A stretch of 52,911 nt of DNA, counting the filler, from Asterionella formosa (lineage: Eukaryota): assembly GCA_002256025.1 (NCBI GenBank). It is 4 parts of 4 records of this genome, joined end to end, with 100 filler letters (N's around TTAATTAATTAA, not from the genome) between each part and the next. Parts side by side here need not be neighbours in the genome. Positions count along the whole stretch, not along the records: positions 39,773 to 52,911 come from NKIB01006934.1; 3 more parts are not named here. One strand, 5' to 3'. The notes under the pieces were generated by a model. That model saw only the letters and a program-made list of their open reading frames with translations. It did not search any database and was not told where the DNA came from. Below are positions 26,818-52,911 of this stretch, one piece after another. Position numbers and translations under genes: made by a program. Position 1 is the stretch's first letter. The number at the start of each line of letters is the position of its first letter.

Positions 26818-27390
26818 CTATTTGTTCTCGTATTGAATCCACAAGTGCTCAATCAAATTGTTACGCAATTGAAAGTGTTCACCTTCACTCATGTAGTTCA
26901 TTCTTATATTCTTGAAATCAAGAAATGTGTGTAAATTGTCATGATTCACGTTGTCAACCAAGAATCCATCCTGAATATTGTCAAATAGATATTCATTTGT
27001 ATTTTCAGTTTCCCATTCATCCTCTATGATCATGTTGTGCAAAATGATGCATGCAATAATTACACTGTTCATAGCACCCACTGACCAAAGTTTACATGGA
27101 AGTGCAAGGATCCTCCACCTGGCCTGTAGAACTCCAAATGCTTGCTCAACATCCTTGCGCTGTGCCTCCTGATGCATCGAGAAATAACTCCGTTTTGGAC
27201 CTTGTGGCTCTGAAATTGTCTTGACAAATATATGCCAATTTGGGTAGATTCCGTCAACCAAATAATACCCCAGATTGTGTTGTTGGTTGTTGATGGCAAA
27301 CTGTACTTTTGGAGTCCTTCCAGCTGACAAATCATGGAAAAACGGTGAACGATCCAAAATATTAAGATCATTGTTTGCCCTGGGCATTCC
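26818..27390 (-). pseudogene. PIF/Harbinger DDE transposase, C-terminal half only
   Basis: GMPRANNDLNILDRSP, YYLVDGIYP, QEAQRKDVEQAFGVLQARW and ACIILHNMIIEDE are typical Harbinger transposase motifs. Similarity is lost upstream of about 27390. Confidence 0.88.
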
Positions 27391-29322
27391 GACATCCTTG
27401 TTAAATAATCTATGCGGAGAAACTTTTTCCGGTGAAGAAGTATTTGAACTAATGTTAATGAAGACGAACATACAATTAATAAGATGGGATGGAATATTTG
27501 GAAAGTTAAATGTTCTATGTAATGAACTATTCACAGGCTTGTCGTCACCATCGGAGCTGCCGACAATCTAAGTAAAACAATATTCTATATGTGTTATGAA
27601 GAAAAAGAACGATTGAATGATCAGGAACAGACCATTATCATTACTACTTGGTTATCTGTATGAAAGATTGGACAAAAGATCCAAGATCCAACTGATCTGA
27701 AATAAGTGGAGTTGAATCGATTGTAAATCGATTTCTAGTTTTATAAGCTCACAATAAATAAGGAAGCAAAACGTTGCTGTCTACATTTGACTTGTCTAAG
27801 AGAAAGACTATGGCACACAGCGTGGTGTACAAACGTGTACTGCTACTGGTGTAAGGAATTTAACACAGTTTACCGGTTGGTCAATCACCATGATCCGAGA
27901 GCGCCAGCCGGACAAATAGGAGGCCCAACAAGGGAGAGATGTGATATCTCAACAACTTCGTAATATTGATCACAATTCTACCTGAAAATAAATCACGGCA
28001 GAAGACATATTTCACAATTTGACCATCGATTCCAACAATACCTACAATGCCTCAGTTCACCCGAAGACAACGAGAGCTGATGAGGGAGCTGCCTCTGTCC
28101 AAGCGTCCAGCATGGAGAGAGCGAAAGACTGCATTGACACACAGGGAAAAATTTCGAACTGCATTGACCCACTGACGGTATAAAAAACACGTTTTGTCAT
28201 GAAAAATCATTCATTTTCTATTTCTTAAGCTCCAGAATGAATCTTGTGCATATACCGGATGGAATGATACTGTTAGTTCTCAACCGATTGGACGTCGATC
28301 TTTCGTTAATTTGGGTCAAAAGTGGCGATCGGAAAAATGAAAAGCACGGATTATCCCAAGTTTGGAGTTCTTATCTTATTGAAATCTTGCTAAATGTGAG
28401 ACTCTAGAGGCTGCCTTGCTTTTATTGTTTCCCATGTCTTGTCTGCATACATGTTCTGTTTTATGGCCTTTTTGATGACAAGGTCATTGACAGCAGGCAC
28501 ATACCATTGTTGGATTTCCACTGTGGGTAATTACATTCCAAGTGAAAAGAAAATGTGGCATAAAATACTACATTGCCTTTTTTGCAGTAATAGTTAATGG
28601 AAGAATACTGGCCAAGTGTTTGGCTATCATCATTGTTTTCCCCAGGCTCCTCTGCACTAAACTCACAGCTTTTAGTACTATCATTGGCTATTTGCCATAA
28701 ACTCCCTGTACAACATCATAGAAATAAGTACATTTTTGTAAGCATGGGAATGTGTCAGTTCATTTACTCTCCTGGTGAACATTGCTTGTTGCCATGCTGA
28801 TGTTTAATTGTACTGATGTTCAAGTTTATTTTAATTTATGATGTTTTACCATTAGAATAATCCCTCAACATAACACAGCCAGAGCACCAGGTACAGAGGT
28901 GCAGGTACGAGTCGTACCCAAAAGTGCTCACCAGCTACACATGCGTTACCAGGTACCAGTACCAGTACTGTACCAGGTACCCTGGTATTGGTACCAGTAA
29001 AAAACTGCCATGACCCATTGAGTTAGGGTGTTTGTTTGACTTCTCCGACCAAAGGTAAATTCTGTCGAATTTCGGACCCATCTGTTCGATAGTGTCAGAA
29101 CAGCATCGATCACTCAAGCTGTTGTGTTGAAATTCTAATTGAACGATTACATCAGAAGATACGATGATAATAAAACAGCTAATAAGTGATTTCTATGGGT
29201 CATGGAAGTATATACTTTTTTCTGAAAAAAAAAATATAAGTTTATATACATTTTCGAGGACGGATTAGGTCATGTGTTAACGCACTTTTATTTCATTATA
29301 CCTTTTTACTAAAAACATATAT

Positions 29323-39772: not shown

Positions 39773-39950
39773 AGTAATAATGTACAGCATTGCTTATGTG
39801 AGCGATGCTGCTGCGTGCCGGTATGTACCAGGTACTGTATTCTATTAGTTGGTATTACCGGTTTATAATGATCATTCATACACCTACCTGTTTCGTGTCT
39901 TTTGCAAATGAGCGAAGGAATGATCATCCACTTTATTATTTTTTGTTCGC

Positions 39951-42900
39951 ATGTCATGTCATTCCATGGCTGAACTGATAACCATGATGAGTCAATCGAG
40001 TATCCTTACACCAGAAGAATCGGTGATGGCCTTGTCATTTGGAATAGAAACTGGAGTGTCTGAGGCTCAGCAGAAGAAGGACAACGATGACCACCTGGTG
40101 TCGCTTGTTGAGCCTGATTATGCTACGAGAACGCGAGGGGGCTTTTCAGTATCCGAGATCACAGAAGCAACCTGTAATGCTCGTGATGACAGCAAGGTGG
40201 AAATAATAATACCAGATTGGTTAGAAGACGACTATGACACTGAAGATGAAAGCTCTATCGAAGGAGACTCAAGAATCCCTTCAAAACAACAACACGAGTC
40301 GTTGTTGGAACAACTCCCTCCCGATGTGTCTGCACTCCTTCTAGCACATTTGCCAGTTCAAGATCTGCACTCTGTCGCCTTATGTTCCCGCACCATGTTC
40401 CAACAATCAAGGAGTAACGCTCTGTGGAAATCGAAATTTCTTGGACGATGGAATACAGACATTGTTCGAGAACAAGATGATTGGTGTTTAGCCTATCAAC
40501 GCGCCTACAAAAACAACCACGATCTTTGGATTACTCATTGGAATATTGTACTACCCATGGATGGAGATAGTCCCGGCAGATGCTGCGTTCCAGAATATGT
40601 AGAAAAGGAATTTGGGGATCGCGGTGACAAGCAATGGAGTCGGTACTGTCCCAGCTGCCGATATTCTCGTGACAATACGTTTCGATTGCCCCCCATGGTG
40701 CGAGACATGGAAGAAAAACAGCGATTGAGTACGGATATTTCAGATACCGTATATCAGGTTGAAGTTTCTGCTGCAGCACATGGATTGCTCCTGAATAGCA
40801 CACAAACATGCAGCAACATGACAACAACTCAAGCCCAGGCCACCTTTGCGTCTGCTCAATATTCTGTTGCCAAGTGGTGTCATAATGTAACGAAACATCC
40901 AAATGAATCCAACCATGCTGCAGTATCAATCAAGAAGCGTGCCGAACGAGCATTCAAAGCAGCATCGACATTTTATAGAACGATCGATTCGAAGCAATAT
41001 TCGTCCGACTCGCTGAACTTCCTTAAGGATTCCCTGTTTTTTGCAACGGGCGAATCCTTACTCAGCAGCTCTTTGGCATCTCAAGCGGAACTAGAGTCGA
41101 TGAAAAAGGAACTATATTTAAATGATAATATTACCGCTCCTGGAGTGACCAATACTGTGGCGCACCTTGGGCCTCACCACGAAAGTGCCCGGCACACTTG
41201 GCACGTGGTCCGATTTACGAATCCAGATTTTTGCAGACCCCTGACTTTTCGTATCTTCGTACAACGATGCGATTGCTTCACTGTGTATCCTTCGGAGGGT
41301 TATTTGGAACCAGGTGAGACTTGCCACATCGTCCTGGGTGTTCGCCTTTTGGGTAGTTTGATAGCCGAAGCATACGAAGCGATAAACGTCCAACGAGAAC
41401 AAGTTGACCCTTTTTTGGCCAATGTGTATGCGCACGAGGCCCACTTGCCATATGCTCCGTTTTCCGTGAGGTACATGTATGCACCCGTATCGCCCTGCAT
41501 TCCTCCTGCCTTTACGTCTCGGGGAGAGTCACGCCCCTCGCTAACAAGGCCAGCCATGCCACATGCTGCGATTTCAAAATACAAACATGTTATCGACTAT
41601 CTGTGGGAGCATGTGGCTACAGAAGTACTAGTAAGAACGCAGTATCTGTCGGCTCATGTGCATGCGAACTATCGATTCGAAGAGTTTCAATTAGCAAGCC
41701 TTTTCCCCTTTGACCTCGCCATTCGACCGACAGACAAATGGGGTCATCCTACTGCTTCATCGACCGCACTTGTTCATGTAGCGCCACAGTTGCAACACAG
41801 AAGTGCAAAATTGTTTGCAGCGATTAACAATACGAAATTAGAAACGGAATTTTCAGACCAGGGTGAATCGTATCGATCGGAGAAGAGTTGTCGCTTGTGC
41901 TCCACTGATTGGGGTGTTCGTTCGGAAGAACTCGGTCGCACTCACCTCCTTCAACTGCTGATATGCGAAGGCTACCGACGACATCGTCGACAGGAAATGG
42001 ATCGACTAATTTCGTTGATTCGAGTGGTGTACCGAATCGTACATGGAGCTTGTTGTGATTGGCATGACGTTTACAGGCTTCTGTATAAGCTGCACTGTCA
42101 GGTAGTGCAACGACGAGCTGTTCCTTTGCTTGGAAAGAAACAATGTCAAGCTTTATCGCAGTTGGAAATTACTTTGGACAGATTGTGTATCATTGTTCAT
42201 GGTAGATTGCGTGACCCTAACAGATCATTGCACGCTGAAAAGACTGCGTTTATCGGTCCAATTTGGTACTCCGAACCATGGCGAGAGGGTGGGGTCTATC
42301 GGCATCGATTGTGCACCGATTCTATCTACGGTGAGGTGGTCGAGTTACCGTCAGACCGAGCCGACGAATTTGAGCGCAAGGACGAGCCAGATGACTTGGA
42401 CTGGTTTCGTCGCCTATGCCATTCTCCGGGCAGATATTGCCTAGGTATTCAGCACGACCCGAATCATCGTGATGCAATCCCAATTTTCGACGCCATTTCA
42501 GAAAGAGCGCTTTACCCTTTTCTACCAAAGAACAGAGTGATTGGCACAGATGTTTTTATGGACGAGGCACTACTAGCTGTTGGTGGTGCCCTTTCCATGT
42601 TGAATTGCCCAAGGTCTTTGATTGTGCATGGGGTATTCGACCGAGTAAGAGGACCTGGCACCCTGATTAGATGTCCTGCTGCTACAACTCACTTATTTGA
42701 AAGAATTGGTCCAAGAATCGAGGAGAAATTGATCGACGATGCCTCGTCGCGTATTAAGAATTGGTCTTTGCCGCAGGGAAAGATTTCAAGTAATACCAAA
42801 TCTCGGCCCCATGTCGTGTGTGCAACCCATTATTGTTGCCTGGATTTTAGTGACTTGGATCCCGATGGGCATGAACTTTTGCACATCCAAAAATCAGGTT

Positions 42901-44396
42901 TTGAAAGCGTTGAGCACAAATCGTTCCTGCGAGACTATCTGGACAATGTGCCTCCTCTTGGTGTCGGTCAGTTCCCAATCAGTACTTTGGGGGAGGAAGG
43001 AAACATTTCAGTACTCACTTTGGCAAACTTTTCCTTTCTTGAACTTGATGATCAACGATCTCAAGAAAATGTCACTCGTGTCAACCACGGAAACCGTCAC
43101 CGTCATAATGATCGATTCAACCCATTGATCGTTGGGAACGGGAGGGGTCCTCGACTATTCAATCTCCTATGGACTCTTTCGGCTCATCTCGGATGGAATG
43201 TCGATGGAGAGCAGAGCGGTGAGGCATGTATCACGGTGGATCGGCGTTTTCTGATTGCCACTCAATGGGTTGCAAATTCTATTTCTATGCTACCTTTGCT
43301 CTTCACTCTCCTAGCTCGTGCCACCAATAGAATTACCATAAGACCAATCGAGTATCATCTGGAGGGATTGCCATACGATCTGGATAAAGAAATGAGATAT
43401 CTCTCCTCAACTGAATGTGCGATTGCAGCGATGGTGGTTTGCCACATTTGGTTACGCTTGGGACGTCATGCCGAAAGAAGGCTAGGACGCACTTACGAAC
43501 GAGCCATGCAAGAGCACATTTCGAAAGACTCAAGTCTCGGAAGTTTTGGTAGAATCACACGTTCTGTCGTGGATCATTGGCAACGTCGTTGGGATCGAGA
43601 TTGCCCCTTCTTTTTTCAATGTCTAATTTTTATGCCTAGATGGAATAAGCGAACATACAATGTTGTTCAAGCACATTTTTCGACCTACCGTAGCAAAGAC
43701 CTTCGCGAGCACAGGTCTTTGCTTGAAAGTGCTGCCTGTCGTGGAACGATGGACTTTGGAGGGAGTATACGAGATGGTAAGCCATCTGCAATCGTTGAAG
43801 AATCTTCATTTCAAAAGTTTATCACAGGTGGCTTGGTGGCCCTCGGAAGCTTTACTGCATGTTCCCCACATATCCTGTTGAACTTGATGATTGTGTTTGG
43901 TTCCAGCATTGGTCTGGGCATGAGCATGGCATTACAATTTATGGAAGCTGGACGAGGAATTCATTATGAATGTTTTCCGAACCAAAGATCAATCTTAACT
44001 CTTTTCTCCATGAACACTACTGTCATCGCTTTCTTCATGATGGGCCATATTGTTGGCAGCTCTGGAGGTATCTTGTTCCTTGCCGAGTTTATTGTTACAT
44101 CTGTTTCCCTAGTACTTGGAGGGGCCGGCACTATTTCAGCATCTGCAATTGAGTCCTGGGTATGCTTCGTTTGTCTTGCTTGGACTGCGTTTTGGGGCCA
44201 TCTGTTTGCAAGAGTTGCTCTTATGGATGGCATGAGACAAAAGCGAAGGGTAGCATCGTCAACGCTTCTTTTTTCATTATTAGTTGCTTTGTCATCATTG
44301 TTGATGATTTCGTTGTTGGCTTGGAAATGGAGTGTACCACCCGTCACGATGATTGTTCGCGATGTTCTGAAGAAGAGTGGGTATCGATCACGGAAG
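39951..44396 (+). CDS. Large F-box protein with an MSP/VAP-like Ig domain and C-terminal transmembrane helices; 3' end lost in a gap
   Basis: About 1480 open codons. F-box LLEQLPPDVSALLLAHLPVQDLHSVALCSRTMFQQSRSNALWK, MSP-like VVRFTNPDFCRPLTFRIFVQRCDCFTVYPSEGYLEPGETCHIVL, and several hydrophobic segments in the C-terminal third. Confidence 0.8.
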
Positions 44397-45324
44397 NNNN
44401 NNNNNNNNNNNNNNNNNNNNNNNNNNNNNNNNNNNNNNNNNNNNNNNNNNNNNNNNNNNNNNNNNNNNNNNNNNNNNNNNNNNNNNNNNNNNNNNNNNNN
44501 NNNNNNNNNNNNNNNNNNNNNNNNNNNNNNNNNNNNNNNNNNNNNNNNNNNNNNNNNNNNNNNNNNNNNNNNNNNNNNNNNNNNNNNNNNNNNNNNNNNN
44601 NNNNNNNNNNNNNNNNNNNNNNNNNNNNNNNNNNNNNNNNNNNNNNNNNNNNNNNNNNNNNNNNNNNNNNNNNNNNNNNNNNNNNNNNNNNNNNNNNNNN
44701 NNNNNNNNNNNNNNNNNNNNNNNNNNNNNNNNNNNNNNNNNNNNNNNNNNNNNNNNNNNNNNNNNNNNNNNNNNNNNNNNNNNNNNNNNNNNNNNNNNNN
44801 NNNNNNNNNNNNNNNNNNNNNNNNNNNNNNNNNNNNNNNNNNNNNNNNNNNNNNNNNNNNNNNNNNNNNNNNNNNNNNNNNNNNNNNNNNNNNNNNNNNN
44901 NNNNNNNNNNNNNNNNNNNNNNNNNNNNNNNNNNNNNNNNNNNNNNNNNNNNNNNNNNNNNNNNNNNNNNNNNNNNNNNNNNNNNNNNNNNNNNNNNNNN
45001 NNNNNNNNNNNNNNNNNNNNNNNNNNNNNNNNNNNNNNNNNNNNNNNNNNNNNNNNNNNNNNNNNNNNNNNNNNNNNNNNNNNNNNNNNNNNNNNNNNNN
45101 NNNNNNNNNNNNNNNNNNNNNNNNNNNNNNNNNNNNNNNNNNNNNNNNNNNNNNNNNNNNNNNNNNNNNNNNNNAATGTACTAGTATAATCAACTTTCAC
45201 TGGGTATATGTGATTGATTCAATCCTGTTCCTCCTTTATCAATCAACAGCACAACTCGTAGCCCTTTAGCGAGCTTTTTCAGAATCATTGTTAACCTTGA
45301 GTTCAAAAACTGCAATCGCCTCTT

Positions 45325-46733
45325 TCAACACTCTCCTCCATGGCTCAAATCGATAAGCACCGTGCAATTGTCGCACCGTGGATCCACGACATTTTTTCTC
45401 AATTCATTGTACAACCGACTCCAATTGGAACTCAACGTCAATATGTAGTATTTTGCCTCCATGGCGACCAACACTGATCCCAAAGCCCACAATCCTGGCT
45501 TGCCCTCCAAGTCTTGGGCAATATTCAAAACAACGTTGAATTCTGCCATGTTGAATGCACTCTTGGGTCGGGCAAGGCGATATGGTAGGAATTCCGTATA
45601 AAAGTGATCAATGTAGACATTCCAGCCTAGGTGTTGGCTTCTGTTTTCAAAATTCGTTACCGCGCTTGGATCCTCAGTGCATAGGAGTATATTAACTTCT
45701 TTCAGCTTGTGCTCGTCAACCACCTTTTGGATTTCAACAATGTACTCGTCGACATTAAAGAGTTTGGATTCAACGAACTTATCTCCCCATCGCATGTGAA
45801 CTAAAATAAGGTCGACAGGTACTTTTTTAAACTCAATCGTTCCGTTCTTGCCGAACACAGCCCTAGCCTGACGCTCTGCTTCGTCAACGACTAACGGCGA
45901 TACTTTAGAAAATAAAAACTCCATACTGGCGGCTCTCCAGGTGACAGTATCTTCATTGAATGTTGAACATCTGATTTGACTTTCCACAACACTCATATTG
46001 GCCCATTCACTAGTCTGCTCCAGCCCACAGGTTGGTTCTGCTCCTGGAAAGTAACAATCCAGTTGACTGGTATGAAACGGGTCTCCACATGCCTGATGAT
46101 CTATCCAGTCCCATGAGGGCGTATGCTGTGGTCGACGGTGATCGCGTTGTGGCACATGCGTTCTTATGCGATACCCTTTGTGCCGCATGCTTTCATTGAG
46201 GGCATACGACCAACATGCAATTCACTCCCTAGGCCCATGGCCCACGTTCGTAGCTCATACCGGATCCAGGGTATACTACAATTATGTTGGTGGTCGAAAA
46301 TGGTCTTGGCTTGCTCTGAGTATAGCTGAAGGTTCGTCCAGTCGTAGCTTAGTAGGAGAGATGGCGATTTGATTCCTTCCGTCGGACTGCTTGAGGGAGT
46401 AGAGCTTGGGCTAGCACTGGGTTGACTAGTAGGGCTGGGGTCCGGTTGAGCTCCTTCGGGCTTGGCGTCGTCCCTAGTACTTGCTTCGTTCCATGTTTTG
46501 TCTTCGTCAATGTTGCGATTCAAAATGTCCGATCTATGCCTTAATTCCTTGGCACCATCTACCGGTACAGAATTGGCATATCCTTCATTGCTTTCACGAT
46601 GAGCATCACTATCATTATTGATCGATTGGACGGATACAATTACCGTTTGGATCAGCGAAACGGTCCCTAAAAAAATCAGCATGACGACTAGACTGTTCAT
46701 GCTCCGCACTCGCTGATATATATTTCTCATCAT
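45325..46733 (-). CDS. FUT8/NodZ-like (GT23-type) fucosyltransferase, type II membrane protein; one apparent 1-nt frameshift at about 46212
   Basis: N-terminal TM segment and Ser/Pro-rich stem. Motifs GLGSELH, VHMRWGDK, LLCTEDP and LTLSSNWSRL. Adding one base joins ORFs 46164-46829 and 45325-46188 as ELHVWSYALNESMRHKGYRIRT. Confidence 0.78.
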
Positions 46734-47326
46734 CTTGCAACCGAACGTAGAGATGGCGGCTTGTGGATAAATGTGGGCGAAATAATGACTCCTCGTCGCC
46801 ATGGCTGGATCATCGGCACAGTAATGCATTGTAGGTAGAATGCGTGCCGGCCGTATGAAGCGAACAAAGACTACCGTACCGATATATCCAGTTCATGTCA
46901 CATATTTTTTATTATATATTCATCCATAAAGCTACATATAAATAAGAAGCACCACTGAATTTGGACACAAGAGGAAACAATATGTATGTACATAATATAG
47001 CAGCGCAGTTGAGGTAAAAGACGGTTAGCAATTATGACGATATTATTCTTAATTATATCATTCCTCTGGCTTTTTCTGTTTGTTCAAAATTACAAAACCA
47101 CAGCATATGGTACCAAGTACCAGGGGTACCACGTACCAGTGTGAAAGTACCGAGAAGAAGGGGGAAGATTGTTGCAAAACTCTTGTACACAATCCAACAT
47201 TCTGCCTTGCTTTGTATCCTGTCGTTGCAACATGTAAACTATATTCTTTCTCTGTCGATATTATTTACCCTCTGACATAGCATATTTTACCTTTCAGCAG
47301 TTCCTAGTCTACCATCAAGCATAGTC

Positions 47327-48229
47327 ATGGGCGACGGCGCTCCCACCGGTAACGAGCGAGTGGTCTTGACCGCCGATATTGGACCTGTCTCCCCATCGCC
47401 GAAAGAAATCCACCTATGCTTTCTCGGATGTGAGGACAAACCTCCGTATGGACCCACACATCATACGGCTCAACTGTTCCTTCTCCTTTTTGAATCTGCC
47501 GTCCTACAGGAGTATCCTCGCGATTCGTACCGAATACAGATATCTGTCTATCGTTGCCAACTATTCGATTACCCACCAGAGTATTCAACCTTCCATGGCA
47601 TTGTACTGCCCGGTAGTTTCTCGGGTGCCTACGAAGAGCATGACTGGATTGAACGACTGAAGCAGGAAATTGCTACTGTCATTTATCCACAATCCATCCC
47701 CACGTTGGGCATTTGCTTTGGTCATCAAGTTTATGCCCATGCGCTGGAGGGGGGAAAGGCAACAAAATGTCCAGCTGGGCCACAAGCGGGTTGTAGAACT
47801 TTTGATTGTACCGAGCTTGGAACAAGAACGTTTTTTAGAAGTGACGATGATGTTAGTAGGAATGCGTCACAGATTAAATTGCTGTACACTCATGGTGATA
47901 TGGTTGCGTCATTGCCATGGTGTGGCACATCGTTGGGTGGGAATGAGCATGTACCCATCCAAGCTGCCATGTACTACAATGCCAGCCATGACAAATCGCA
48001 CGAAAAACAAGCTGTCGCCGTCACTTTCCAAGCACACCCGGAATATGCTGGTTCGTCACTCGGGTATGAGGGCACTTTCATAAAGACTTTACACAAAATG
48101 GGAGACCGAGGAAGTGTGAAAGATTGCGAGCAAGCGGAACTAGATGCTTCGAATCATTTGTCGACCATTCAACGACAAAGCGTGAATGTCGTGATTGCGG
48201 CCGGAAGAGCTCTGGGTTGGTTTGAATAG
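47327..48229 (+). CDS. Class I glutamine amidotransferase-like protein
   Basis: Catalytic triad motifs LGICFGHQ and FQAHPE, plus GIVLPGS and THGDMV. Confidence 0.9.
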   Translation: MGDGAPTGNERVVLTADIGPVSPSPKEIHLCFLGCEDKPPYGPTHHTAQLFLLLFESAVLQEYPRDSYRIQISVYRCQLFDYPPEYSTFHGIVLPGSFSGAYEEHDWIERLKQEIATVIYPQSIPTLGICFGHQVYAHALEGGKATKCPAGPQAGCRTFDCTELGTRTFFRSDDDVSRNASQIKLLYTHGDMVASLPWCGTSLGGNEHVPIQAAMYYNASHDKSHEKQAVAVTFQAHPEYAGSSLGYEGTFIKTLHKMGDRGSVKDCEQAELDASNHLSTIQRQSVNVVIAAGRALGWFE

Positions 48230-48465
48230 GATGCTATAGTTTCGTAATGATTTAGAGATCTAAGTTTTTGTTGTTTCATTTGCATTATTTTACGGATGCG
48301 CTTGTTACCCTACCGCGCGTCACTCGCAACAAACAACGAATTCTACGGTGGGTCAGGCAACTAATCAATCATGTACTAGGATAACTTCTGTGTGTTACCA
48401 CCAGGACACTAGATATGCAATAGCTGCCACACACTGACGTCGTAAATGCAACGAAAATTGTCACC

Positions 48466-49110
48466 CTAACACGACAACAGCGACACCTCAAAAAATAGGA
48501 GCCCTCCTTTGCCAGCTCCAATATCCCTATTTCCATAACCAGCTTCTGGAGGTATGAACAAGTGTCGCTTCCCTCCTTGTCTCATTCCTCCCATTCCAAT
48601 ATCCCAGCCTTCAATGACTTCTCCTTTTCCCACGCGAAATCCAAAATCATTGGAAGCATCTATTATTTTCCCCTTGGCATTTGCTTTCCGTAATGTGTAT
48701 TTGACATGGCACTTTTGGCGATCTTGCAGGACAGGTCCCTTTCCTAGAAGTATGTCTTGGTATTGTACACCTTTACGACACGTGACCACGTCATATTGCG
48801 GGGACGCTTCTGGTTTTGAATTTTCGGCGCGCTCCTGGATTCGAACTTTGTCTTGATTGGCTCGTTCCTGTGCCTTGGCTTTCTTACGCTCCTTGCGTTC
48901 TTGCTTTTTCAAACGTAACTTGTTTATTTTAGTATCCATGTCACCTTTTGGAGTGTCTGACAGATCCACTCTGCTGCTGCCATGCTCTTCGCTCTCGTCC
49001 TTACTACTAGTGGCATCCTCGTCATCGTGGTCGACCTTGGACCTTTTGGCCACATGCGATTGCTCTAGTGTATCGTCAAAGTCGTCATCCTTCCTTGCTC
49101 TACGTCCCAT
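48466..49110 (-). CDS. FKBP-type peptidyl-prolyl isomerase with a charged N-terminal extension (nuclear/nucleolar type)
   Basis: C-terminal FRVGKGEVIEGWDIGMGGMRQGGKRHLFIPPEAGYG...LLFFEVSLL; acidic then Lys/Arg-rich N-terminus. Confidence 0.9.
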   Translation of the reverse strand: MGRRARKDDDFDDTLEQSHVAKRSKVDHDDEDATSSKDESEEHGSSRVDLSDTPKGDMDTKINKLRLKKQERKERKKAKAQERANQDKVRIQERAENSKPEASPQYDVVTCRKGVQYQDILLGKGPVLQDRQKCHVKYTLRKANAKGKIIDASNDFGFRVGKGEVIEGWDIGMGGMRQGGKRHLFIPPEAGYGNRDIGAGKGGLLFFEVSLLSC

Positions 49111-49882
49111 GATAGATTAACCAAAACAACAATTGATGGCTGGATTGATATACCTTAAGGTGTTGCCAATGTTGTAATACTTTTAATAGTAAACAAGAAA
49201 CACCAACGTTACCGCTATTCGCCCACCACGGTGAGATGATTTATATTTCTGCCACAACAGAAAAAAACCGGAAACAGATGATGTGCAATGGGTCCATAAA
49301 TATTGTTTTTATTTTCACGCGTGTCGCTTCCAGTAAGTACCAGTACCTTAGTACATACCCGGTAGTTGTTTTGTTATTCTACAGTGCCTGGGTGATGGTC
49401 AGACGACGACAGTAGATATCGGTACTTGCAGGTATAATCCAGATAAATGCTATGAACTGCATATNNNNNNNNNNNNNNNNNNNNNNNNNNNNNNNNNNNN
49501 NNNNNNNNNNNNNNNNNNNNNNNNNNNNNNNNNNNNNNNNNNNNNNNNNNNNNNNNNNNNNNNNNNNNNNNNNNNNNNNNNNNNNNNNNNNNNNNNNNNN
49601 NNNNNNNNNNNNNNNNNNNNNNNNNNNNNNNNNNNNNNNNNNNNNNNNNNNNNNNNNNNNNNNNNNNNNNNNNNNNNNNNNNNNNNNNNNNNNNNNNNNN
49701 NNNNNNNNNNNNNNNNNNNNNNNNNNNNNNNNNNNNNNNNNNNNNNNNNNNNNNNNNNNNNNNNNNNNNNNNNNNNNNNNNNNNNNNNNNNNNNNNNNNN
49801 NNNNNNNNNNNNNNNNNNNNNNNNNNNNNNNNNNNNNNNNNNNNNNNNNNNNNNNNNNNNNNNNNNNNNNNNNNAAAAAATT

Positions 49883-49943
49883 TCTTTGGATGGTTGAGTG
49901 GAATTTTTAAATTCCGGTTGTTTGTTTGTTGCTGAAAGCAACA
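49883..49943 (-). promoter_or_regulatory. Histone H2A 3' stem-loop region
   Basis: Minus strand: TGTTGCT-TTC-AGCAACA hairpin, then AACAAACAACC, then the 16-nt GGAATT-TAAA-AATTCC hairpin (49915-49900), then ACTCAACCATCCAAAGA. Confidence 0.6.
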
Positions 49944-49969
49944 TGGTTGAGAGCGGACGCTCAAAACAT

Positions 49970-50353
49970 TTATTTCTTAATTGTTTCAGTCTTCTTTGGA
50001 AGAAGGACAGCGTGAATGTTGGGAAGGACACCTCCAGAGGCAATGGTGACTCCTCCGAGAAGCTTGTTCAACTCTTCATCGTTCTTGACGGCGAGGGTAA
50101 TGTGACGAGGCACAATACGGCTCTTCTTGTTATCACGGGCGGCGTTTCCGGCCAGCTCAAGAATCTCGGCGCAGAGGTATTCAAGGACTGCAGCAAGGTA
50201 GACGGGGGCACCGGCTCCCATTCGGGTGGCATACTTGCCCTGACGCAAGTAACGTCCGATACGACCGACTGGGAACTGAAGACCAGCCTTGGCAGAAGCG
50301 GTGGTGGACTTCTTCTCTCCACGGCCTCCCTTTCCTTTTCCTTTTCCAGTCAT
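49970..50353 (-). CDS. H2A: Histone H2A (canonical type, no SQ motif)
   Basis: [39 protein letters not shown] and GGVLPNIH; intronless. Confidence 0.98.
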
Positions 50354-50792
50354 GATTGCGTTTGGAGTGTTTTTAATTATTAGCTTGACGCTGATCGAAT
50401 TGTGTGCTCAAGCTCACAGCGCTACTTCGGTTCTTAGTCTTGTTTGACACTTGTTCACCGCGCCAGGTTTTGAAAAAGTTGGGAGTGGATTTTCAGAAAC
50501 CTCTCAAGCGTTCCTTCTTGGTTTTGCCTTTTTGTGCTGTCGTAAAATTCTAGTGCACCCAATTTTCTTTGAGCCACCTACCAATTCCAAAAACTCACAG
50601 GAAAGTGTGTTGCAAAACAACCCGGAAAATGAAGAACAGCTGGCGCGCTCAAGGTTAGTGTTAATGGATTGAATTTATTTGCTATAAAAGGATGTAGAGT
50701 ATTGGAAGCACTACTTTCACCTGATTCAGCAACGATGCGGCAAATTCCATCTAAATGCTTACAATTTTCGATAGACGACTTAAGGTTTCAAC
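50354..50792. promoter_or_regulatory. Bidirectional H2A/H2B promoter
   Basis: 439-bp spacer between divergent ATGs. TATAAAAG near 50683. CTGGCGCG occurs once on each strand (50459-50466 minus, 50640-50647 plus). Confidence 0.7.
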
Positions 50793-51231
50793 ATGGCCAA
50801 GACACCATCCAAGCAATCCGCCAAGGCACCTAAGAAGGCCTCCACCGGCAAGAAGGGAAAGAAGCGCACTGAATCGTATTCTTCTTACATCTACAAGGTC
50901 CTCAAGCAGGTGCACCCTGACACTGGTATCTCCAAGAAGGGCATGTCCATCATGAACTCCTTCATCAACGATATCTTCGAGCGAATTGCCACCGAGGCTG
51001 GAAAGCTTGCCACCTACAACAAGAAGGCAACCCTTTCGTCCCGCGAAATCCAGACTGCTGTTCGTCTTATGCTTCCTGGTGGTACGTTGGAATTATGCTT
51101 TGCTTCGTTGCGTATTTCTTTATTCTATCGATATCATGTACTAACATTTTGTATGCGTCAACTCAACAGAGCTCGCCAAGCATGCTGTCTCTGAGGGAAC
51201 CAAGGCTGTTACCAAGTTCAGCAGTGCCTAA
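50793..51231 (+). CDS. H2B: Histone H2B; exons 50793-51081 and 51170-51231
   Basis: [21 protein letters not shown]...[33 protein letters not shown]. An 88-nt intron GTACGT...TACTAAC...CAG lies at 51082-51169. Confidence 0.98.
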
Positions 51232-51248
51232 AACAATAGTACCCAAAC

Positions 51249-51312
51249 TGTTGCTCTTTTGAGCATACCAAACAACCGGACAATCCAAAATTGTCCACCC
51301 AATCATCAAAGA
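51249..51312 (+). promoter_or_regulatory. Histone H2B 3' stem-loop region
   Basis: TGTTGCTC-TTTT-GAGCA hairpin, then TACCAAACAACC, then GGACAAT-CCAAA-ATTGTCC hairpin (51278-51296), then ACCCAATCATCAAAGA. Confidence 0.6.
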
Positions 51313-51601
51313 CCAACTTGACGTCTCAGCTTTTCTACTAGACACTGCTCCTTCTTGAACAGATATTGTTATAAACTGGCCATTGGAATAGTAGGCAGTG
51401 CACTGTATCTAAATCATGTACAATAGATTGGAAGCATACATTAATGATTGCAGTTTTGTCTAGCGGTCTGTTTTCCAAGAATATACCGGTAGTTTGCCTC
51501 GTTGATCAAATTTACTACTTCGCTAGTAATTATCGACGTAAATTTGTTTCACCAACTCATTACAAAAGCTATTGGAACTGTTGAGTACCTTTATAGGAAT
51601 T

Positions 51602-52862
51602 CTACAACTCATCTTTGATTTGACCAGCTTCGTTCCTGTATCCTGTCGAAATGGTCATGCCCTCCTTTCCAGGACCGAACCATTTCACTGTGTCTTGAAG
51701 ACCACACCAACCATTTGTACATCCCGGTTCTCGCATAGAAGTGCCTACCATAACAAGTTTCTCCAAATTAGGGTCTGGAGGTACTGTCGTATGCCAATGA
51801 GGAGGAATGGCATAATGGATATTAAGTTCAGCCTGCTCCTGATTCCACCCTGTTGGGAAATAGTGAACAAAAATCGAAGAGTCTGATATAGGAAACCATC
51901 AGCGGCAGGGGGGGGGATGTTGGTATATTATATAGGGTAGAAAAACGAAAGAGGGTAAGCATCGACGCATCTTGTTCAACAAAAGGAACGTATAGATTGC
52001 TACCATGACATACGTACACCACGATCCGTTAAACTTGTGAGGTCGTCCATGAATGCATTTGGATGATTCATAGAACATTAAATCCCCGCTCTCTAGCACC
52101 ACCTCGTTTGTATTCCCTTGAAAGTCTTCAATCAAAATTGGCCAAGGTTCACTGTCTTCGGAATGATCGACATGCAAAATACAGGAAATCACGTGCGTCC
52201 TGGACTTGTCCACGTGCATGAAGAGTGAAGAGTGATTACGATATACTCTTAGACCGTCTGTGCATCCAATTGTTTATGATGGGAAAAACATGATTCCATG
52301 AGCACAAGATGTGTTGTCAAGCCTAGGAGCATGGGACGAACACAGGGGTGCACTTACACGCAACAGCGCCAGTCCACGAGCCCCCACTCCATTCTTCGTG
52401 CAGAGGCTTCAACTCATTCAGAACCTTTCGATTCAGCCTAGGCTGCCTAATAAAAAGAGGTCGTTCCTCCCCTTCTCCTTCAATCACGTTAATAAAGGTC
52501 TCATCTTCCGCCGTCGGCAATCCCTCATGCAGCGATGCCATCAGCTCCTCCATCAACGCCGCTGGAGCTCGCGCTAATCCCCAACCATGTTCAGTGAAAT
52601 TAGGAGCCGTGACTGCCGCCGCCATGATCGAAACCCACCCATTGTAGCGATCCGCGTCGTTTGTGATGCGCTCTACTTGTGCCAAGCGACGACGGACCTG
52701 TCGTTTCCACCCAGCCGTGTTGGGAACAATCTGATGATCGCTGAGGGGCCATGTGTAATTTCGGGCGGCATATTCCCTCACACGGTCAGTTTCTATCAAG
52801 GCATTGATTGAACTGGGAATCAGGAGCGGGAGGAAAGCTAGGGCGCGTTGTAGAATTGTCAT
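51602..52862 (-). CDS. ER-luminal 2OG-Fe(II) oxygenase-like protein; exons 52862-52358, 52257-52018, 51882-51602
   Basis: Signal peptide MTILQRALAFLPLLIPSSINA. The spliced core reads YGLRVYRNHSSLFMHVD...YESSKCIHGRP...WYSSIFVHYFP (HxD...H triad), and the protein ends QIKDEL*. GT-AG introns at 52258-52357 and 51883-52017. Confidence 0.85.
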
Positions 52863-52911
52863 GGTGATGGAAGCAGAAGAGCGATAGTATTTTTCTCACG
52901 TTTGTCAATAT

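Follow-up and report, generated by a model that had tools for sequence, protein, structure and literature searches.

What marks the 3' ends of histone mRNAs in Asterionella formosa (Eukaryota), and do the two RNA hairpins found behind both an H2A and an H2B gene of this organism act as one signal or as two? The genes concerned form a divergently transcribed pair, H2A on the minus and H2B on the plus strand, near the end of the stretch of DNA analyzed here. We call this whole stretch the window: 52,911 nucleotides (nt), filler included, made up of 4 parts of 4 records from NCBI GenBank assembly GCA_002256025.1, with positions 39,773 to 52,911 derived from NKIB01006934.1. We propose that in both genes the second hairpin (hairpin 2), together with the A/C-rich flank before it, the ACYCA after it and a CAAAGA placed 11 to 12 nt beyond the stem, is probably this lineage's histone mRNA 3' processing signal, consisting of a stem-loop and a histone downstream element. 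The arrangement is a modest variation on a known signal, distinguished by unusual loops and by an extra hairpin upstream (hairpin 1).

Behind both genes the elements stand in the same order, which is an upstream hairpin, A/C-rich CAAACAACC, a GG...CC hairpin, ACYCA and CAAAGA (coordinates in Table 1), and the distance from stop codon to stem is 54 nt in H2A and 46 nt in H2B. Each hairpin 2 stem starts with GG and ends with CC, giving a G-C pair at the second stem position. When folded with RNAfold and compared with dinucleotide shuffles, the two sites had z scores of -3.65 and -3.80 over 98-nt stretches and of -4.52 and -3.91 over their cores, and only 0 of 200 and 1 of 200 shuffles of the two 3' untranslated regions (UTRs) folded as well or better. 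The H2A and H2B sites are tied together by an exact 12-nt inverted repeat, CAAACAACCGGA, and the exact 11-mer AAACAACCGGA is confined to these two sites within the window; with up to 2 mismatches allowed, the 11-mer is not enriched there (19 occurrences versus 15.5 expected). The identical two-hairpin layout described in the initial annotation is thus borne out by the sequence, the folding z scores and the inverted repeat, and its second stems, which differ in sequence yet were said to pair fully, do so at 6 of 6 positions in H2A and 7 of 7 in H2B. A reading of the H2B hairpin 2 as a 6-bp stem with a 4-nt loop has to be corrected, as the stem is 7 bp long and the loop 5 nt.

A search with the window's H2A protein returned 540 related stretches of metagenome contigs, of which the best 80 were used as loci. 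We scanned these for perfect GG...CC hairpins (stem of 6 to 7 bp, loop of 3 to 6 nt, A/C-rich lead-in) and labelled the open reading frame (ORF) upstream of each. The loci contain 100 histone-linked hairpins, making 102 with the two of the window, and 58 of the 80 have a hairpin behind H2A. The 22 loci without a perfect H2A hairpin comprise 2 with less than 120 nt of downstream sequence, approximately 7 in which an imperfect hairpin can be recognized by eye and 13 with none, among them the close relatives L001, L004 and L006. The 19 closest contigs, referred to here as group D, have H2A coding DNA 80 to 87% identical to that of the window and hold 35 distinct elements: 16 behind H2A, 9 behind H2B, 3 behind H3, 3 behind H4 and 4 behind ORFs rich in K, A and P. 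Two of these last four ORFs match Pfam Linker_histone (E values of 7e-14 and 8e-15). The initial annotation had considered that H3, H4 and H1 genes might lack the motif; in the relatives, genes of all three classes have it. Group D shares with the window a 5' flank of AAAC[CA], GGA...TCC stem ends and a 3' flank of ACCC or ACTC, and more distant loci grade into the animal-type stem-loop, for example GGCTCT...AGAGCC followed by ACCCA.

Two further observations concern individual contigs of this set. In L007 (127-660) and L019 (516-1040), linker histone H1 genes have an apparent intron before their K/A/P-rich tail and are followed by the same stem-loop and CAAAG. In L007, L019 and L021, the bases that flank the stem vary with histone class within a single contig: in H2A and H2B genes the GG...CC stem is preceded by A and followed by G, in H3 and H4 genes it is preceded by C and followed by A, and H1-type genes occur with either; these two bases are unable to pair with each other.

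We built a covariance model (R1) from the 35 group D elements (alignment A2), excluding the window, and ran it over the window with filters off. Its two best matches are the two sites in question, H2A with 47.1 bits (E = 2e-6, 49874..49929) and H2B with 28.1 bits (E = 0.006, 51264..51322), the latter with the hairpin core treated as a 13-nt insert. Across the 279,106 bases of the window and the 80 loci, the H2A element falls within the range of the model's own training sequences (44.9 to 61.8 bits). Third in the window, at 16.6 bits, comes the opposite strand of the H2A hairpin, and all remaining matches reach at most 15.9 bits. The arms of the H2A stem-loop (49900-49915) form a perfect palindrome, such that the opposite strand is a hairpin with the clade-typical loop TTTA, which is what the model scores at 16.6 bits; we considered and rejected a reading in which this plus-strand hairpin serves a plus-strand gene, as the flanks there are neither A/C-rich nor ACCCA-like.

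The downstream element gives a second line of evidence. Of the 35 group D elements, 28 have a CAAAG that starts at one of two distances from the stem, 11 nt in 16 elements and 12 nt in the other 12. When the 26-nt tails were shuffled 2000 times, on average 0.44 of 35 elements, and never more than 4, had CAAAG at these distances; the seven exceptions among the real elements have CAAAC- or AAACAG-type sequences in its place. The window conforms to this, with CAAAGA at 12 nt in H2A and 11 nt in H2B. A distance that stays constant across all histone classes might be expected from a guide ribonucleoprotein that acts as a ruler. The stems provide a third line. Among 64 distinct hairpins of 6/4/6 geometry, double changes occur in 4 of the 6 pairs, and the covariation score is 0.68 versus 0.18 for shuffled alignments and 0.12 to 0.14 with the partner position slid; the same 64 hairpins were selected for perfect pairing and for GG...CC, so their 100% pairing and the G-C pair in 64 of 64 are there by construction. 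Taken at the level of sequence comparison, these data show hairpin 2, its flanks and CAAAGA to be homologous to the histone stem-loop and downstream element, and they show selection on pairing and spacing. The corresponding claim of the initial annotation, that the second hairpin, its flanks and AAAGA are a histone stem-loop and downstream-element signal, is upheld both by the matches to a model built from relatives and by the fact that the relatives themselves hit the Rfam Histone3 family, below its threshold except in one case.

That family (RF00032) describes the animal histone stem-loop and downstream element, with which the window shares the GG...CC base, an A/C-rich 5' flank, an ACCCA-type 3' flank, an AAAGA core and a position a few tens of nucleotides after the stop codon. 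The shared features accord with the Rfam consensus and with the account given in a preprint (10.64898/2026.10.14.759114). The window differs from the animal system in its loops, TAAA and CCAAA, which are not U-rich, in the 7-bp stem and 5-nt loop of H2B and in the presence of one or two extra upstream hairpins. AAAGA in the window begins 12 to 13 nt after the stem, while in vertebrate genes the AAAGA-type element lies farther from the stem. Scores of the relatives on Histone3 run from 17.3 to 36.1 bits against a gathering threshold of 34 bits, and a single element in the 20 closest loci, an H4 one, passes (36.1 bits). In five group D loci, all 11 Rfam matches at E values up to 5 are to Histone3 (17.3 to 31.9 bits) and fall on 11 of the 13 listed elements. 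No Rfam family matches anywhere in the window at its gathering threshold.

By extension from the animal pathway, which the same preprint outlines, an SLBP-type protein would bind the stem-loop on the nascent transcript, and a U7-type small nuclear ribonucleoprotein (snRNP) would pair with CAAAGA. A shared CPSF73-type nuclease would then cut a few nucleotides past the stem, within or just after ACYCA, yielding an mRNA that would end in the stem-loop without a poly(A) tail and that would retain the upstream hairpin in its mature 3' UTR.

The loops are where the window departs most from its relatives. Every one of the 35 group D elements has T as the first and third base of its loop; these loops are TCTA, TATA, TTTC, TTTA and TCTC on stems such as GGATTT, GGAATT, GGAGAT and GGATCT, and T occupies both positions in 77 of the 102 histone-linked hairpins. 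TAAA and CCAAA each occur once among the 102, that is, only in the window, although loops without this pattern are not unique to it, CACAT, AACAT and AATT being found in other lineages. By geometry, 87 of the 102 have a 6-bp stem with a 4-nt loop, 11 have a 6-bp stem with a 5-nt loop and 4 are of other types; the H2A hairpin 2 belongs to the first class. The window stems are fully paired though unlike the GGATTT/AAATCC of the clade. To judge from these alignments, the stems here are altered by compensated substitutions, and the loops have lost uridines that are invariant in the relatives. We note that each window loop, when reverse-complemented, is U-rich (TAAA becomes TTTA, CCAAA becomes TTTGG). 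Because the arms of the hairpins are inverted repeats, inversion of the loop between these palindromic arms is possible, and this hints, as an idea only, that both loops could have arisen in one step each. The initial annotation had called the signal lineage-specific, a description that suits the A-rich loops alone; the signal itself is widespread in protists.

Several observations weigh against the processing signal that we propose. The uridine at loop position 3 is missing from both window loops, and the H2B loop also has no uridine at position 1. The H2B element, with a stem of 7 bp and a loop of 5 nt, lies off the 6-bp/4-nt geometry and reaches only 28.1 bits on the covariance model. Neither element matches Rfam Histone3 in the interval 49870..51400 at E values up to 10, where the three matches listed belong to unrelated families at 14 to 15 bits. 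A loose U7-like pattern (TCTTTG, an Sm-like site and a hairpin) had 8 matches in the window and the 80 loci, none of them credible, and Rfam U7 has no match in the window or the 20 closest loci; 2 of the 8 pattern matches are the antisense of the window's own elements and were discarded. Three loci whose H2A proteins are 94 to 96% identical to that of the window (L001, L004 and L006) have no stem-loop within 125 to 160 nt of the stop codon. Of the words sampled from the stretch, fractions of 0.68 and 0.57 are present, at contig level, in two poly(A)-selected RNA libraries (X2 and X6). Because the loci share ancestry and the set was cleared of identical sequences only, the p-values given here overstate the evidence. 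Finally, the predictions that the transcript is cut after ACYCA and has no poly(A) tail are made by analogy with the animal pathway. As to the three close relatives, their H2A genes may be replication-independent or polyadenylated copies.

Much of this would also be expected if the signal were decoupled or decaying, with SLBP/U7 cleavage abandoned, the mRNAs polyadenylated farther downstream and the hairpins serving as stability or translation elements or persisting as recent relics. The loss of loop uridines in both genes, the lack of a Histone3 match and the close relatives whose H2A genes have no stem-loop all fit such a state, and decoupling of this kind in fungi and plants is described in the parts covered of a recent preprint (10.64898/2026.10.14.759114). 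The RNA data bear on it as well. Seven RNA runs, from lake-water and other freshwater metatranscriptomes, hold at least half of the sampled words of the stretch. Since poly(A)-selected libraries are among those that hold it, a polyadenylated form of these mRNAs is possible; the word fractions in these libraries are silent on where transcripts end, and abundant histone mRNAs also leak through poly(A) selection. With the ends of group D contigs taken as a proxy for mRNA ends, none falls at a stem-loop. Contig L051, which is unrelated, stops 3 nt past a GG...CC hairpin, and nothing follows from this. Set against decoupling, the window stems remain fully paired (6 of 6 and 7 of 7 positions) though they depart from the clade consensus at several positions, the flanks and CAAAGA keep the exact clade spacing of 11 to 12 nt, and the 12-nt flank is identical between the two genes. 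Stem pairing, spacing and the identical flank together point to continuing selection on the whole element, and we regard decoupling as a possible but rather unlikely explanation.

The role of hairpin 1 is a separate matter, since the initial annotation regarded the signal as bipartite. In the fullest form of this idea, hairpin 1, with its U-rich loop, G-C second pair and A/C lead-in, would be a second or even the main SLBP-type site that compensates for the lost loop uridines, leaving hairpin 2 mainly to position the cut and the U7-type RNP. The heptamer TGTTGCT does occur at a matching offset in both genes, 28 and 29 nt ahead of the stem-loop; a rough estimate, from arithmetic only, puts the probability of sharing a heptamer at offsets no more than 2 nt apart at about 1%. 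U-rich loops are present in both first hairpins (UUC and UUUU) and lost from both second ones, and only in the window, not in the H2A-H2B pairs of relatives, does similarity between the two UTRs reach upstream of the A/C flank. In a distant lineage (L029), a second hairpin of the GG...CC type lies 10 nt ahead of an H2B stem-loop, which also speaks for this idea. The TGTTGCT-hairpin of the initial annotation is, however, shared only as a heptamer and not as a hairpin in the same register: the first hairpins differ in register and stem length (7 bp with a 3-nt loop versus 5 bp with a 4-nt loop), and the minimum-energy fold of H2B pairs TGTTG with upstream bases instead. The covariance model reports neither hairpin 1 at E values up to 10, and the upstream hairpins of relatives have no common sequence and heterogeneous loops. 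We consider this fully bipartite reading unlikely.

What the relatives do have in this region is structure of a general kind. In UTR alignments of the window's H2A and H2B with the nearest loci, conservation is seen only from the A/C flank on. The 45 nt ahead of the 5' flank fold with a mean z of -1.04 against dinucleotide shuffles, 22% of them below -2 (n = 64, spacers of at least 47 nt), while control segments of equal length 30 nt downstream average -0.06 (n = 63; Mann-Whitney p = 2e-6, a value overstated by the relatedness of the loci). The effect is present both in group D (31 elements from 19 loci, per-locus mean of -1.09) and in the others (32 elements from 23 loci, -1.08). Where the spacer contains a helix of at least 4 bp, as in 45 of 78 cases, the last upstream helix ends a median of 13 nt ahead of the stem-loop; the values in the window are 11 and 13. 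The loops of the last upstream hairpin are heterogeneous in the 56 of 74 spacers that have a stem of at least 4 bp, with a mean U content of 0.30 versus 0.23 for the spacer (p = 0.025, subject to the same overstatement). It thus seems common in these protist histone genes for the spacer to fold and to leave a short single-stranded A/C-rich stretch ahead of the stem-loop, and hairpin 1 of the window is a strong example of this. Hairpin 1 is most likely one instance of a general tendency toward folded spacers that leave approximately 8 to 18 nt of A/C-rich single strand, and it is probably not a conserved second recognition site. As conserved sequence, register or loop type of an upstream hairpin is not found in relatives, where only a general excess of spacer structure is seen, the term bipartite is not sustained. 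In the distant L029 locus (minus strand, 592-640), the stem-loop of an H2B gene is preceded, at 10 nt, by another GG...CC hairpin (GGTTTC/GAAACC, loop CCCG), an independent two-hairpin arrangement.

A combined interpretation would join these threads. In it, the stem-loop has been remodelled and both genes have lost the loop uridines that animal SLBP reads, hairpin 1 has joined recognition to give a truly bipartite SLBP signal, and, as a separate point, the rigidly placed CAAAGA predicts a non-animal U7-type guide RNA with UCUUUG near its 5' end; we hold this combination to be improbable. Chance resemblance or an assembly artefact is more remote by far, for although the H2A element abuts an N-run and near-matches to the 11-mer (up to 2 mismatches) show no enrichment across the window, two independent copies stand behind two histone genes, their covariance model matches lie far above noise with folding z scores near -4, and the same element follows histone genes in 19 related contigs. 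We retain the stem-loop and downstream element as the preferred account of hairpin 2 and its surroundings.

Table 1. Features of the H2A-H2B locus, in positions of the window; features are given in transcript order for each gene.
Feature	Position	Strand	Details and basis
Histone H2A gene	49970..50353	-	127 amino acids, intronless; stop 49970-49972; ORF and Pfam Histone, Histone_H2A_C
Small hairpin right after H2A stop, GAGC/GCUC stem	49951..49962	-	RNAfold; no counterpart in H2B
H2A hairpin 1, 7-bp stem UGUUGCU/AGCAACA, loop UUC	49927..49943	-	RNAfold; ends 11 nt ahead of stem-loop
H2A single-stranded A/C-rich 5' flank, ending CAAACAACC	49916..49926	-	Sequence; covariance model match
H2A stem-loop (hairpin 2) GGAATTTAAAAATTCC, 6-bp stem GGAAUU/AAUUCC, loop UAAA	49900..49915	-	RNAfold; covariance model, 47.1 bits
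H2A 3' flank ACUCA (putative cleavage region) and CAAAGA (49888..49883)	49883..49899	-	CAAAGA 12 nt after stem
Histone H2B gene	50793..51231	+	Exons 50793..51081 and 51170..51231; stop 51229-51231; Pfam Histone
H2B hairpin 1, 5-bp stem UGCUC/GAGCA, loop UUUU	51252..51265	+	RNAfold; heptamer TGTTGCT from 51249
H2B A/C-rich 5' flank, ending CAAACAACC	51266..51277	+	Sequence
H2B stem-loop variant (hairpin 2) GGACAATCCAAAATTGTCC, 7-bp stem GGACAAU/AUUGUCC, loop CCAAA	51278..51296	+	RNAfold; covariance model, 28.1 bits
H2B 3' flank ACCCA (putative cleavage region) and CAAAGA (51307..51312)	51297..51312	+	CAAAGA 11 nt after stem

The H2B gene is interrupted by an intron of 88 nt (51082..51169) with GTACGT, ACTAAC and CAG, and the C-terminus of the encoded protein is identical to that of the H2B of relatives. 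The GTACGT and ACTAAC signals are yeast-like, and the intron interrupts the codon after LPG. A motif scan of the window found no H3 or H4 gene. Elsewhere in the window there are ordinary nuclear genes as judged by Pfam (19 large ORFs scanned in one run), including HSP70, Sir2, SMC, Raptor and FKBP. An ORF on the minus strand at 26821-27567 encodes a PIF/Harbinger-type transposase (Pfam Plant_tran / DDE_Tnp_4, E = 3e-52) and adjoins paired 44-base N-runs. The N-run at 49465..49874 (410 bases) adjoins the H2A CAAAGA, and sequence past the H2A downstream element is unreadable; nine more N-runs lie in the window, several of them paired runs of 44 bases.

The core of this finding is ordinary, in that histone stem-loops outside animals are already known. 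Davila Lopez and Samuelsson are said to have given the first report of them in protozoa, in 2008. According to the parts covered of the preprint named above (Zhao, Bond and Ni Leathlobhair 2026, 10.64898/2026.10.14.759114), stem-loops, SLBP and LSM10/LSM11 are widespread in protists, including stramenopiles; the stem-loops of animals lie 25 to 60 nt from the stop codon, and those of protists lie farther from it and are less conserved; cleavage occurs 5 nt after the stem; and, across eukaryotes, the second stem pair is kept as G-C and the third loop base as U, with one alga that has no loop uridine. Those parts mention neither an upstream hairpin nor a fixed spacing of CAAAGA, do not go into diatoms or single species, and report no U7-type RNA in stramenopiles or other algae, though the figures and supplements may list elements of this kind or U7 hits. 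In the genome of the diatom Thalassiosira rotula, 34 Rfam Histone3 hits are counted (PMC11842555), so that such signals are annotated in at least one stramenopile alga; in the part of that source covered, the hits are tabulated without sequences or analysis.

Beyond this Rfam count, our literature search found no diatom-specific analysis of histone stem-loops, and it found nothing relevant on a second or upstream stem-loop in histone mRNAs. Our searches of the literature and of the preprint text, whose figures and supplements may bear on both points, turned up no report of two genes that lack the loop uridines in an otherwise intact element, nor of a fixed CAAAGA spacing across the five histone classes of a clade. 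A structured spacer between stop codon and stem-loop likewise appears to be unreported, as judged from a full-text literature search and a term search of the preprint, with the same proviso for its figures and supplements.

These results have three consequences for the study of histone mRNAs in this clade. Because one element in the 20 closest loci and neither element of the window pass the Rfam Histone3 threshold, surveys made at that threshold would miss the clade almost entirely. CAAAGA at a fixed 11 to 12 nt behind H2A, H2B, H3, H4 and H1 genes provides a concrete sequence and spacing with which to seek a U7-type RNA outside animals. In two genes the loop uridines have been lost while stems, flanks and downstream element are intact, which constitutes a natural test of what SLBP reads here.

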